A DNA stretch of 64,000 bases, from the NCBI GenBank assembly GCA_017404935.1, contig JAFRBI010000006.1, positions 32,379-96,378 of the forward strand, written 5' to 3'. The notes under the pieces were generated by a model. That model was not told where the DNA came from and made no database searches. It saw nothing but the letters and a program-made list of their open reading frames with translations. Source of the DNA: Candidatus Saccharimonadota bacterium (GTDB lineage: Bacteria > Patescibacteriota > Saccharimonadia > Saccharimonadales > Saccharimonadaceae). Shown here in pieces: positions 12,276 through 61,875 of this stretch (its first letter is position 1; each line of letters starts with the position of its first letter). Made by a program: the position numbers and the translations under genes.

Positions 12276-13493
12276 CTATTTTTTGTAATATCTAGACAAA
12301 AATTGTTTTTTATACTCGGCGAAAGTGCCACCCAGAATTGATTCACGAATTTTGTCGGTGGTTTTTACTACAAAATGTTCGTTGTGAATGGAAGCGAGGA
12401 CTTTGGCGGTAATTTCGTCGGTTTTGAAAAGATGATGTAGGTAGGCTCTGTTGTAATTTTTACAACACTCACAATCACATTCTGGCATCAGGGGAGTAAA
12501 GTCATTTCTGAATTTGGCATTTTTGATATTAATACGGCCATCCAGAGTGTAAAGTGAGCCGTTTCTGGCCATGCGGGTAGGGGCAACGCAGTCAAAAGTA
12601 TCACAACCGTATTCGGCACCGATGAATAAGTCAATTGGCTCTTGTCCCATGCCAAGCAAATGTCTTGGCTTTTCTTCTGGCAAAATACTATTGACCGTCT
12701 TTAGCATTTCATCCATGCCGTCAGCCACAAAAACACCACCGATGCCAAAGCCATCCACATCCTTACTTGCGCAATACTTGGCAGATTCGGCGCGAAGGTC
12801 GTTGAAAGTGCCGCCTTGCACAACAGCATACAAATACTGTTCCATATGATGATGACAACATTCCTTTCTCGGGCCGCGTCCGTCCGGCCCATCGCCATGG
12901 GCGGACGGCGCTTCTCCTCGCGCTGCCGCGCTCCGGAATCCCTCGAAAGAAACGTCACCATCATCTCTCAAGCGTTGGTGTTCTGCTACGCAGCGGTCTA
13001 GCCAACGGTGGGTGCGGTGCATGGCGTCCTCCATATCTTGGCGGTTTTCAGATTTTGCAAGCTGGTCAAACGCCATGTGAATATCAGCACCAATAGCCCA
13101 TTGGGCTCTCATGGATGATTCGGGCGTCATTTCTAGTTTGTCACCATTGATATGAGATTTGAATTTGGCGCCATTCTCATCTATTTTAACATCTGGCAGA
13201 GAAAAAATCTGAAAACCGCCAGAATCGGTGAAGGTCGGGCCATGCCAAGAAGAAAACTCGGCCAAGCCGCCAGCCTCTTTGATTAAATCTGCGCCTGGCG
13301 CCAAGATTAGGTGATAGGTATTAGCAAGAATAGCTTGGGAGCCTAAATCTCGCATCTGCCTCATAGTGAGAGCTTTGACGGTAGCTCTGGTAGCAGCCCC
13401 AACAAAGCACGGAGTTTTGATGTCGCCGTGCGGTGTATGAATTACGCCGGCGCGCATGAGACCATTTTTCTTTTCTAGATCAAATTTCAACAT
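12276..13493 (-). CDS. tgt: tRNA-guanine transglycosylase with internal hairpin-element insertion
   Basis: [36 protein letters not shown] zinc site. Confidence 0.97.
12846..12964 (+). repeat. GC-rich hairpin element (core 12869-12944) with inverted arms, in frame in tgt
   Basis: tcgggccgcgtccgtccggcccatcgccatgggcggacgg...ggaatccctc; arms atgatgatgac..ttcctttc / gaaagaaacgtcaccatcat. Confidence 0.9.
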
Positions 13494-14560
13494 ATTAGCA
13501 TTGAATCTCCATAACTTAGAAAATTATATTCTGCTTTTATTGCATGGTCGTAGGCATTTTTTAGATTATCCCATCCGGCGAAGGCAGAAGCAAGCATGAG
13601 GACGGTAGATTTTGGCGCATGAAAATTAGTTAAAAGAGCATCGACGATTTTGAATTCGAAACCTGGATAAATAAAAATGTCGTCTTCGCCTTCGGGTTTG
13701 CCAGTCCTGGCGTAATATTCGAGTGTTCTAGCCACCGTGGTGCCAAGAGCTACCACCCGTTTGGCATTATTGATGGCCTCTATGGTGTCCTCTGGGATGT
13801 GATACCACTCGGAATGCATTTTGTGATCTTCGATATTGTCAGTTCTGATTGGCAAGAATGTACCGAGCCCGACGTGGAGGGTGAGATATTTAATAATCAC
13901 GCCTTTATTTTTTAATTTTTCCAATAATTCTTCGGTCATATTGAGGGAAGCAGTAGGAGCGGCGGCGGAGCCCATTTCACGAGCCCATACAGTTTGGTAA
14001 CGCTTTTTGTCGTCTTCGGTAGCGTCGCGATGAAGATATGGTGGGAGTGGTACAGTGCCATATTTTTCGGCAAGTTCGGGAAGGGGAGTATCGGACTCTA
14101 CTTCTGCGATGCCATTGCCTAGTAGGTGCTTAACAGTAATGCTTCTTCGACGCGCTTGCGCCGGCCCATCGTTATGGGCGGCGCTGCGCTCTTCTTGCTC
14201 CCGTTGTCGCAAGACGGTCTCAGAAGCATCACTATTAAGCACTTCCAATATATCCCCCTCATGGAGTTTGCCGCGATACATCACGTGCTGAGGCTCATCG
14301 CCGTGGCGCTCCAACACTACCAATTCGCGTTTGCGACCGTCTGGGAGTGAACAAAAAATTCTAGATTGCATCACGCGAGTGTCGTTCAAAATCAAAACAT
14401 CTCCGGGGTTTAGAAAATCTGCTAAGTCCCGATAATAACTATCTTTAATTTCGCCATTTTTGCGGTTCAAAACCAAAAGCCTAGTGGTGCCACGAACTTT
14501 TGGTGGAAACTTGGCAATTCTATCTTCTGGAAGATCATATGAAAAATCAGAAACTAGCAT
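13487..14560 (-). CDS. queA: S-adenosylmethionine:tRNA ribosyltransferase-isomerase with internal insertion
   Basis: [49 protein letters not shown]. Confidence 0.97.
14126..14242 (+). repeat. GC-rich hairpin element (core 14147-14221) with 21-bp inverted arms, in frame in queA
   Basis: Core contains cccatcgttatggg; arms gtgcttaacagtaatgcttct / agaagcatcactattaagcac (19/21 complementary). Confidence 0.88.
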
Positions 14561-15116
14561 TTTTTAAATCTTTCTCAATTTGTTTTTGGTAGCGTTCTTC
14601 TTCGGAAAATATACAGCCACAATATTTTTGCATATAAAGTCCCATCTCACGTGCCTTATTTTGGCCTTCGCGAAACCCAACACGAAAATCGCGATACAAA
14701 AATTCCACACCCGAAAGTTTTGATAGTTCTTCACATACTTCTTTGAGTTCTTCGTGTTTTTGATATGGTGAAACTAAAAGGGTAGTAGTAAAAGCATCAT
14801 AGCCGTGTTTGGCGGCATATTTTACAGTTTCGCCAAGGCGTTTTTTGTAACAATAATTCACGCAGCGATTAGAAATATCCGAAACTACATTTTTGCAAAA
14901 TTCGTCCAAACCATAATCTTCAATAAAGACCGACTCGGCGCCAACTTTTTTGCAATAATCTTTGAGGCAGTCACGGCGAGTCTTATATTCTATATATGGA
15001 TGGATGTTTGGGTTGTACCAAAAAATTGTTGGCTCAATGCCTTCAGAGCGTAATGAGTCAATACAATAAACGCTGCAGGGAGCGCAGCAGGTATGCATGA
15101 GAACTTTTTTTGCCAT
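14547..15116 (-). CDS. queH: epoxyqueuosine reductase QueH
   Basis: HTCCAPCS, YNPNIHP, RC..CY, FTTTLLVSPYQ, QKYCGC. Confidence 0.93.
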   Translation of the reverse strand: MAKKVLMHTCCAPCSVYCIDSLRSEGIEPTIFWYNPNIHPYIEYKTRRDCLKDYCKKVGAESVFIEDYGLDEFCKNVVSDISNRCVNYCYKKRLGETVKYAAKHGYDAFTTTLLVSPYQKHEELKEVCEELSKLSGVEFLYRDFRVGFREGQNKAREMGLYMQKYCGCIFSEEERYQKQIEKDLKNASF

Positions 15117-60407: not shown

Positions 60408-60408
60408 A

Positions 60409-61875
60409 TTGAAGATCATTGGTCTAGACATAGGCACCAAACGTATTGGTGTAGCACGTGCTGATTCTACCACTAGAATCGCAGTTCCATCAGGTTTTAT
60501 TAATGTTGATGGCACCGAATGGACAGAAATCGAAAAACTAGCCAAATTATATAGCACTAATTGGTTCGTGCTGGGGCTGCCGCGTAGTAACGAAGGCAAT
60601 GAAACTCAACAATCACAATATGTGCGAAGTTTTGCCAAAGAGTTACTAAAAAGAATTCCTGATGCAAAAATTAGATTTCAAGATGAATCTTTAACTTCGG
60701 TAGAAGCCGAAGAAAGATTAAAAGCTCGCAAAAGCAATTATGAAAAAGGCGAAATTGATTCGGAAGCCGCCACCATCATTCTGCAAGATTTTCTAGAATC
60801 TTTTAGAGGGGGTTCTGGGACACCGTCTTCTTCAGAGGCACTGTCCTCGCGCCCGTCGTTACGGGGCTCGGACGCTCTTCTTGCTCCCGTTGTCGCAAGA
60901 CGCTCCTCAGAAGAGGTGTCTCAGAACCCATTGCAAGAAATTCAAGAGAATGTTAAAGTAGTAGCAAAGAAAGAAGGTGACAAAATTAAGATGAGTGCGA
61001 GGAAGACAAAGCATAAAATGAAGAAGTGGCCGATTTTTCTGGTGCTTCTTTTGATTGTCGCAGGGTGCGTGGGGGGATTTTTCCTGGTTCAAAAAATTCG
61101 CGAGCATAATGCCGAAGAACGTCGCAAAGAATACGCTAGAATTGAAGCCGAGATGAAAGCCGAAGTTTTTACCTTTACAATCAAGCCGGGTGAAACGATT
61201 TTTGATATTAAAAAACATCTAGTTGAGGTTGGGTACACAGCAGAAGAAGTAGATAAAGCTTTTGCAGCAGAATATAATTTTCCGTTTCTCTCTGGTCGCC
61301 CAGCAGGAGCAACCCTTGAAGGCTACCTTTATGGAGAAACTTACGAATTTTATAAAGGCGTGCCAGTAGAAGATATTATTACTAAATATCTCGAGAAAAT
61401 GGGGGAAGTAATTACTGAAAATAATTTAGAAGCAAGATATGCGGCGCACGGTTTGTCGCTTTATGAAGGAATTACGCTGGCTTCGGTGGTACAAAAAGAG
61501 TCCCCAGCTGGTGAACATTCAAGGGTGGCTCAAGTATTTTTGACAAGACTCGCATACGGAATACCGATGGGAAGCGACGTAACTGTAACTTACGCTCTTG
61601 ATGTAGAAGACCCAGATCGCACCATTTACAGAGATAACCAAGCAGCACTTAAAATTAATTCTTGCTATAATACTCGCCTTCACGCTGGGCTTCCTTGTGG
61701 ACCAATTTCAAACCCTTCGCTAGCCTCGCTTCTGGCTGTAGCTGATCCAGCCGACACTTCTTATCTGTATTTCTTGACAGGGGACGATGGTTTGATGTAT
61801 TATAGTTATACAGAAGCTGAGCATAACCAGAACGCTTACTTACATTGCCAGAACCTCTGTAACATTTCATTATGA
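60409..61875 (+). CDS. ruvX-mltG: fusion of RuvX/YqgF nuclease and endolytic transglycosylase MltG
   Basis: GLDIGTKRIGVA, VLGLP, DESLTS, IDSEAATIILQ; then TM, LEGYLYGETY, ASVVQKE, PCGPISNPS, YLYFL. Confidence 0.9.
   Translation: MKIIGLDIGTKRIGVARADSTTRIAVPSGFINVDGTEWTEIEKLAKLYSTNWFVLGLPRSNEGNETQQSQYVRSFAKELLKRIPDAKIRFQDESLTSVEAEERLKARKSNYEKGEIDSEAATIILQDFLESFRGGSGTPSSSEALSSRPSLRGSDALLAPVVARRSSEEVSQNPLQEIQENVKVVAKKEGDKIKMSARKTKHKMKKWPIFLVLLLIVAGCVGGFFLVQKIREHNAEERRKEYARIEAEMKAEVFTFTIKPGETIFDIKKHLVEVGYTAEEVDKAFAAEYNFPFLSGRPAGATLEGYLYGETYEFYKGVPVEDIITKYLEKMGEVITENNLEARYAAHGLSLYEGITLASVVQKESPAGEHSRVAQVFLTRLAYGIPMGSDVTVTYALDVEDPDRTIYRDNQAALKINSCYNTRLHAGLPCGPISNPSLASLLAVADPADTSYLYFLTGDDGLMYYSYTEAEHNQNAYLHCQNLCNISL
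60810..60929 (+). repeat. GC-rich hairpin element (core 60832-60908) with inverted arms in the RuvX-MltG linker
   Basis: cccgtcgttacggg core; 3' half shared with the queA copy; arms gggttctgggacaccgtcttct / agaagaggtgtctcagaaccc. Confidence 0.88.

Follow-up and report, generated by a model that had tools for sequence, protein, structure and literature searches.

Palindromic repeats read in frame through translation and DNA enzyme genes of a Saccharibacteria genome

The 64-kb stretch of DNA analyzed here (the window) comes from a Nanosyncoccus-like member of Ca. Saccharibacteria with a genome of 740 kb (11 contigs, ~40% GC) and contains nine copies, each ~90 nt long and ~70% GC, of a palindromic repeat that we call family 1. 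Six of these copies are read in frame within genes. The elements are probably non-autonomous selfish hairpin DNA, a Saccharibacteria counterpart of the palindromic elements of Rickettsia, which is translated as disordered loops and spreads in a replication-coupled manner. A bolder version, which we put forward only tentatively, is that they are transposase-free mobile DNA, in which a folded core is spread by the replisome via strand-specific template switching and acquires a new stem from inverted host flank. If true, transposase-free spread would account at once for the polarity with the replication strand, for arms that are particular to each site, and for the colonized essential genes of a 0.7-Mb genome, and its by-product would be a steady supply of new loop sequence in the Saccharibacteria translation and DNA machinery.

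Copies in the window were located by repeat finding, profile search, and motif scan. In the entire genome holding the window (G000; other G-numbers denote further genomes of the genus, and L-numbers denote Tgt loci of other species), family 1 is a dispersed short palindromic repeat with 29 copies, 24 of which are genic and spread over 23 genes. A covariance model found 1 to 35 copies of the family in each of 23 species of the genus, out of 24, and none in 16 further genera of the order. The relatives providing Tgt sequences were metagenome-assembled genomes (MAGs) of Candidatus Saccharibacteria and Candidatus Nanosyncoccus from the gut of sheep, goat, yak, and buffalo. Full-text searches of the literature found no description of such repeats in Saccharibacteria or other bacteria of the candidate phyla radiation (CPR).

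Window copies, fold, and strand polarity

A reading of the window made from its letters and open reading frames (ORFs) alone, the sequence-only reading, had named Tgt, QueA, MnmA, AlaS, a pseudouridine synthase, and RuvX as hosts and had placed intergenic copies downstream of rplA, rplL, and recR. NCBIfam and Pfam, by which the hosts of the genic copies were identified, confirmed all six assignments, and the three intergenic copies were found where it had put them. The family-1 copies of the window are the following:

12848..12965 (+): tgt element; core hit 12855-12950, core ~12860-12950; gene on the minus strand, element antisense; outer stem unique to the site (GATGATGACAAC.../...GTCACCATCATC); site unfilled in G007, G001, G004, and G024
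14126..14242 (+): queA element; core hit 14133-14227; antisense to the gene; 3' arm (gene sense) collinear with ..VVIKHIIG.. of orthologues; site unfilled in G007, G001, and G004
32543..32665 (+): mnmA element; core hit 32552-32645; sense; site unfilled in G006, G013, G021, and G023
34288..34406 (+): alaS element; core hit 34298-34389; sense; interdomain linker, 35-aa insert
40282..40400 (+): element 3' of the L1 (rplA) gene; core hit 40287-40382; intergenic
42149..42275 (-): element after rplL; core hit 42170-42264 (-); intergenic; the sole family-1 copy of the window in reversed orientation
49907..50024 (+): recR element; core hit 49918-50008; between the convergent genes recR and that of an AMP-binding enzyme; GC-rich outer stem followed by a T run, which looks like a terminator
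56799..56908 (+): element in the gene of an RsuA-like pseudouridine synthase; core hit 56805-56892; 5' end of the ORF; antisense
60810..60928 (+): element in the interdomain linker of a RuvX-YceG/MltG fusion ORF; core hit 60822-60912; sense

The part that moves is a GC-rich core, ~75-85 nt in length. In all family-1 copies, the single-stranded core folds as a three-way junction composed of an inner stem (P1), in which a TC/TC mismatch is frequent, a long hairpin (P2) with the nearly invariant cap CCCRTCGYYAYGGG, and a short hairpin (P3). The consensus fold shows compensatory double changes at 18 of 23 pairs, and G·U pairs are rare. An outer stem prolongs the fold by 15-30 bp, with arms that are unlike at each locus. 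Cores at unrelated loci are 96-99% identical (Der versus LepA, AlaS versus Der) although their arms are unrelated, which indicates that the core moves and that the arms are made, or found, locally. Conserved terminal inverted repeats are absent from family 1, whose common part consists of the inner P1 and the core, and also from family 3 described below. Both the outer stems, with their site specificity, and the strand polarity had escaped the sequence-only reading. Three family-1 copies (C3:16348-16470, C3:106771-106894, and C3:60102-60191) carry a nested insertion of ~30 nt (..TTTGCCTTCGGCAATTCGCGTCCCAA..) within P2; elements thus insert into elements.

With respect to the direction of the host gene, the genic copies are divided into ~12 sense and ~12 antisense. 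With respect to base composition, the plus strand of the element lies on the locally G-rich strand in 26 of the 29 copies of G000; on contig C3, all eight copies are in minus orientation and antisense to plus-strand genes. Beyond G000, 20 loci of 10-20 kb each from 12 other species of the genus were sampled, and 31 of 32 copies matched the sign of the GC skew, so that 57 of 61 copies follow it when both sets are pooled. An orientation that goes with GC skew and not with the gene argues for a replication-linked process that acts on DNA and not on mRNA. As a separate observation, most long ORFs of contigs C3 and C6 (including valS, polA, ileS, and gyrA) are on the C-rich strand, whereas the other contigs show the reverse; should GC skew indicate the leading strand, these essential genes would be head-on to replication.

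Filled and empty insertion sites

Most of the sites filled in G000 are unfilled in its four closest relatives. The AlaS site is filled in 5 of 26 species, with different arms each time, and is empty in the closest relatives. At the MnmA site, which is filled in G000 and G007, the two insertions are unlike in frame and arms, that of G007 being independent and located two codons off. In ~26 of 62 species, the Tgt linker is independently occupied, and the elements differ, as do their frames and orientations. AlaS of G006 contains a short GC-rich extra segment, the 5' part of which resembles the 5' end of the B-type core; we read this segment as a putative in-frame remnant after an internal deletion.

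In the case of Tgt, the empty locus L062 reads ..AAGA|GCAACGCTTGTTCTGAA.., and L055 carries ACAAGCGTTGC plus the core at the position of the bar. The extra piece in L055 is an exact inverted copy of the downstream flank of the host, followed by the core; GAACAAGCGTTGC agrees exactly with the reverse complement of the host sequence GCAACGCTTGTTC. The MnmA element of G007 and the AlaS element of G017 each have an arm that codes for residues aligning with orthologues and a second arm that is its reverse complement and lacks a counterpart. The same arrangement of one host-like arm and one inverted arm lacking a counterpart at the empty site was observed for TyrS, LepA, TsaE, Der, and PilD of G000. 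The inverted flank copy comprises 10-25 nt in the clearest cases, and at the GatB and MnmA junctions a few host bases were lost beside short homology. A direct target-site duplication was not found in the comparison of filled and empty junctions, which show the inverted flank copy instead.

The host-derived arm is located 5' of the core (in core orientation) at ~12 of 13 sites that could be decided by eye; when nucleotides were compared automatically, the 5' arm came out as the host-like one at 14 sites versus 5. A strict rule that the host arm is always 5' of the core was dropped in view of the automatic test and is kept as a tendency. Some empty sites contain short native inverted repeats, namely MnmA of G006 (CGAACAA...TTGTTCG), AlaS of G024 (CAGATAAT..ATTATCTG), and GatB of G001, and the intergenic copies sit within terminator-like stems. 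These two observations suggest that pre-existing quasi-palindromes may be preferred targets.

Host genes and inserted peptides

The hosts of family 1 in G000 are the following:

Aminoacyl-tRNA synthetases: AlaS, ValS (twice), IleS, LeuS, ArgS, TyrS
Amidotransferase subunits: GatA, GatB
tRNA/rRNA modification: Tgt, QueA, MnmA, TruB, TsaE, a TrmA-like methyltransferase, another methyltransferase, a pseudouridine synthase
GTPases: Der, LepA
DNA enzymes: PolA, GyrA, RuvX
Non-informational exceptions: PilD, an O-antigen-ligase-like membrane protein

The genome-wide enrichment by functional class that the sequence-only reading had proposed to look for is present, since 21 of the 23 host genes are informational compared to a background of ~33%. 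This background was obtained by annotating 50 other ORFs of the window, in which informational proteins account for 6,647 of 19,961 residues of coding length. For 22 informational insertions out of 24, a binomial estimate against this share gives ~1e-8. In other species the enrichment recurred in weaker form, as the hosts of 17 of 25 genic copies were informational; the non-informational ones were Wzy, TylF, DegT, aminopeptidase N, two FemAB proteins, a P-type ATPase, and MurB. The statement that all hosts are nucleic-acid enzymes therefore holds in the window, where no element was found among ~39 non-informational ORFs, as had been noted for its transport, envelope, and metabolic genes, but not beyond it, given these hosts in relatives and, in G000, PilD, the O-antigen ligase, and a P-type ATPase and a lipid kinase filled by another family.

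Among the hosts identified, no copy was found in a secreted or surface protein, and every exception is a cytoplasmic enzyme or the cytoplasmic part of a membrane protein. The informational enrichment is real and repeatable, though not absolute. We think that it is mostly a survival filter, because translation and DNA enzymes make up most of the long, soluble, cytoplasmic proteins with flexible loops in this reduced genome.

The peptides quoted by the sequence-only reading for MnmA, AlaS, and Tgt match exactly, their ORFs stay open throughout, and the six window hosts contain three sense and three antisense copies in several frames, in line with the different frames and orientations that it had mentioned. 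All 24 genic copies keep the frame and are free of stop codons, in 23 long ORFs with family assignments, and each insertion adds 25-37 residues. Stop codons are missing from about four of the six frames, whether a copy is genic or intergenic. An open frame was therefore rejected as a sign of selection on the sequence, since the intergenic copies are equally open and only a frame-preserving length has been filtered. Ser, Arg, Ala, Glu, Pro, and Gly abound in the insert peptides; the net charge is mostly +1 to +5 for sense peptides and -3 to +2 for antisense peptides.

Tgt was the only structure modeled (AlphaFold2, 34 sequences, pTM 0.80). Its insert (aa 181-217) is predicted as a coil with a per-residue confidence (pLDDT) of <50 between helix 151-177 and strand 222-225, in keeping with the earlier expectation of surface loops, and the insertion site matches residues 182-196 of the Z. 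mobilis enzyme. In alignments, the insertion sites of AlaS, MnmA, and Tgt are length-variable linkers. The most suitable reading of the inserts is that of additional loop sequence which the proteins tolerate. This reading, one of the two options offered by the sequence-only reading, is supported by the predicted Tgt structure, the variable linkers, and the repeated filling of the Tgt linker. Because open frames are found in single-copy essential genes, the inserts appear to be translated and kept as disordered loops.

Mode of spread, related systems, and neighboring features

The Y1 transposase family (Y1_Tnp, PF01797), the only transposase family searched, had no match in G000 and turned up in just one of the 26 genomes of the genus; an IS200/RAYT transposase was consequently rejected as the mobilizer. 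Four ORFs with a reverse-transcriptase match (RVT_1) are present in G000 outside the window (C3:51320-52483, C9:41521-42690, C8:23118-24350, and C7:14096-15409). Three of them are related (387-410 aa, with IGNLTSQ..YVDDF motifs), and the fourth (437 aa) is different; the IGNLTSQ-type motif is presumably typical of diversity-generating retroelements. A reverse transcriptase was likewise rejected, since the occurrence of this enzyme does not parallel copy number: G010, G011, and G012 have no RVT_1 match yet contain 16-35 copies. With Y1_Tnp and RVT_1 searched, the elements are unaccompanied by a known mobilizing enzyme. A GC-rich hairpin island (C9:40473-40574) lies just upstream of the reverse-transcriptase ORF on C9.

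We infer that the elements are copied by template switching in replication. In this model, the nascent G-rich (leading) strand would stall and copy the core from another copy, and the freshly copied core would fold. The 3' end would then snap back onto its own upstream flank and copy 10-25 nt in reverse, and synthesis would return to the original template at a microhomology, leaving flank, core, and inverted flank in this order. The product would survive only where the added length keeps the frame and the residues land in a tolerant cytoplasmic loop or linker, and a surviving element would simply be transcribed and translated. Such a mechanism would account for the polarity, for arms unique to each site, and for the small deletions, and the core stems would covary because only folding cores get copied. 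Taken together, site-specific stems, inverted flank copies, and a near-absolute GC-skew polarity suggest a replication-coupled movement outside the standard catalogue of bacterial mobile elements.

Several points weigh against this interpretation. Template switching is a model, and the G-rich strand is assumed to be the leading strand; on contigs C3 and C6 it is the C-rich strand that carries most genes. Only at some dozen sites is it clear which arm is host-derived, and the automatic test (14 versus 5) is weak. At GatB, MnmA, MT, and ValS both arms are host-like, which would also fit insertion into pre-existing quasi-palindromes. Furthermore, the tolerance filter falls short of a full account of the host bias, because 43 informational hosts out of 55 are still in excess of the rough 55-60% share of informational proteins among cytoplasmic ones; with a figure that is still somewhat high, an additional cause may contribute.

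As the main rival, an unrecognized enzyme could move the folded core, by cut-and-paste or by copying, into hairpin loops of the lagging-strand template in a single-stranded DNA (ssDNA) transposition like that of IS200/IS605 or REP/RAYT, the arms being largely quasi-palindromes or terminator stems that existed before. The strong GC-skew polarity agrees with this idea, as orientation polarity is a hallmark of IS200/IS605-type ssDNA transposition, and so do the terminator-like stems around the intergenic copies, the short native inverted repeats at the empty MnmA, AlaS, and GatB sites of G006, G024, and G001, and the covarying stems, which suggest that a folded strand is recognized. We nevertheless regard it as rather unlikely, because Y1_Tnp has no match in G000 or in 24 further genomes of the genus, which contain up to 35 copies, because a whole arm lacks an empty-site counterpart at TyrS, LepA, TsaE, Der, PilD, and Tgt (L055 versus L062), and because native palindromes of 20-27 bp were not seen in empty coding sites. 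The adaptive alternative, that Arg/Ser/Gly/Pro-rich loops are selected for contacts with nucleic acids or partner proteins, would account for hosts biased to nucleic-acid-binding enzymes (including the tRNA-dependent FemAB proteins of relatives), for the positive charge of most sense peptides, and for the repeated filling of the same loops across species. It has very little probability in our view, as the antisense peptides are neutral or acidic, unrelated peptides arise at one site via different frames, orientations, and families, the insert is lacking in the closest relatives, and that of Tgt is predicted to be disordered.

The two RNA-level explanations raised by the sequence-only reading were not supported and are unlikely. 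In an mRNA regulon, cis-acting hairpins would slow translation or bind a factor and thereby coordinate the genes of the translation apparatus, which would suit the enrichment of genes for tRNA, rRNA, and DNA enzymes and the very stable, covarying structures. The stem mismatches of Tgt and TruB are mostly G·U on the mRNA strand, as such a role would predict, and selection on the mRNA strand was examined by comparing G·U with A·C mismatches: the result was striking for Tgt (6 versus 1), but the total of all genic copies (72 versus 56) showed no significant excess, and this candidate was dropped. Half of the genic copies are antisense, so that the mRNA holds the complement of loops and junction, and orientation tracks GC skew instead of the gene. 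Three unrelated families occur in the same gene class, presence per gene is sporadic even among the closest relatives, and Rfam gave no match to the elements at the gathering threshold or at E up to 5. A regulon is thus quite improbable. Excision and religation at the RNA level, or ribosome bypass, giving a mature protein without the peptide, could profit from the long perfect stem that juxtaposes both flanks. Open frames and frame-keeping lengths would then be needless, however, the genic copies are found in both orientations, and Rfam matches to ribozyme or intron families are missing. Since one stem arm codes for orthologue-aligned residues, cutting out the hairpin at the stem base would also delete residues encoded by the host; moreover, the putative decaying remnant in AlaS of G006 is itself in frame. 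We give excision or bypass the least credence of all.

Among known systems, the Rickettsia palindromic elements are closest to the selfish, translated hairpin DNA that we favor. As summarized in PMC10969869 and PMC6649704, RPE-1 to RPE-10 (Ogata et al. 2000, 2002; Claverie & Ogata 2003) are palindromic repeats translated in frame in a reduced genome. According to these summaries, they share with the Saccharibacteria repeats that they are short, palindromic, and non-autonomous, have no coding gene of their own, and occur in many copies; that they lie both in frame within genes and between genes and are read through as extra peptide segments; and that they are thought to be placed where fold and function tolerate them, with several families per genus. 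Homology to the RPE families is unlikely, as phylum and base composition set the two apart: the Saccharibacteria repeats are GC-rich in a low-GC genome of another phylum (Saccharibacteria/CPR). Family 1 is also conserved in its core only, its stem being site-unique and in the clearest cases inverted host flank, and its copies are locked to the GC-skew strand (57/61). The RPE hosts are described in these summaries as unrelated genes, whereas the hosts reported here are strongly biased to translation and DNA enzymes. Flank-derived stems or strand polarity are not mentioned for RPEs in the passages on them in PMC10969869 and PMC6649704.

The functional form of IS200/IS605 and REP/RAYT (REPIN) elements is a structured ssDNA hairpin; like the repeats described here, they show a replication-related orientation bias and no direct target duplication. 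A Y1 HUH transposase is wanting in 25 of the 26 genomes. REPs are extragenic and have conserved stems, and we know of no inverted flank duplication for IS200/IS605 or REP/RAYT. Compared to classical miniature inverted-repeat transposable elements, families 1 and 3 lack conserved termini (those of family 2 are conserved), and the Saccharibacteria elements show site-specific stems without direct target duplication, near-absolute strand polarity, and a host bias. It is accepted that perfect inverted repeats can arise by template switching, and switching at the replication fork has been proposed to generate and maintain the complementary arms of coding palindromes in Nematomorpha mitochondria (PMC6649704). 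Those palindromes resemble the present elements as perfect or near-perfect inverted repeats in coding sequence with dynamic gain and loss. They have no conserved mobile core in the loop, in contrast to Saccharibacteria, where a core of up to 99% identity passes from locus to locus and has the palindrome formed around it. The mobile GC clusters and double-hairpin elements of fungal mitochondria are GC-rich hairpins in an AT-richer genome, some of them in coding regions; they differ in being organellar, unrelated in sequence, and formed with different junctions.

The repeats show that essential genes of a very small bacterial genome can be repeatedly invaded by hairpin DNA and still work. They provide a natural map of the tolerance of aminoacyl-tRNA synthetases, tRNA-modifying enzymes, GTPases, and polymerases to insertions of ~30 residues, and a living example, beyond Rickettsia, of protein-loop innovation by selfish DNA. 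In practical terms, the inserts inflate or distort gene models and marker-gene alignments in CPR phylogeny, and element orientation could mark the direction of replication in fragmented MAGs.

The second hairpin type that had been reported in tatD is real and constitutes a separate family. Family 2 has five copies in G000 with conserved termini, and further genic copies are found in the genes of PriA and an ExoIII-like nuclease. Family 3 has at least seven copies with the conserved core ..GGCCAGAGCGGCCCGGAGCGTGTCCGAAGGACACGC.. and, as in family 1, site-unique outer arms; it lies in frame within a P-type ATPase, TsaD, and a DAGK-like (lipid-kinase-like) protein, and four copies are intergenic. 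Together with one further GC-rich long hairpin, which does not belong to family 1 and is read through in frame in the gene of the Obg GTPase (gene start at window position 63193), the hosts of these families are TatD, PriA, the ExoIII-like nuclease, TsaD, Obg, the P-type ATPase, and the lipid-kinase-like protein. The positions are as follows:

28962..29075 (+), window: tatD element, family 2; hit 28965-29072; GC hairpin inside the conserved terminal inverted repeats TTGAATTTTTAAGCACG.../...CGTGTTAAAAATTCAA
C3:23485, C3:26071, C3:36731, C6:5381, C7:46057, C9:58502, C10:63759: family-3 copies in G000
64174-64258 (window-equivalent; C1:96552-96636): Obg hairpin, just beyond the window end

Tgt has a second insertion hot spot directly behind its first two codons, which is occupied by a different hairpin family in L064, L090, and L099. 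Within the window, three large paralogous ORFs (10075-11484, 35741-37213, and 52743-54680) have diverged DNA repeats in common, and two of them contain Fibrobacter succinogenes major (Fib_succ_major) domains; they probably form a surface-protein family. An ORF of 599 aa at 58608-60407, which has no Pfam match, contains a Glu/Lys/Asp-rich low-complexity tract with imperfect repeats at 58903-59122.

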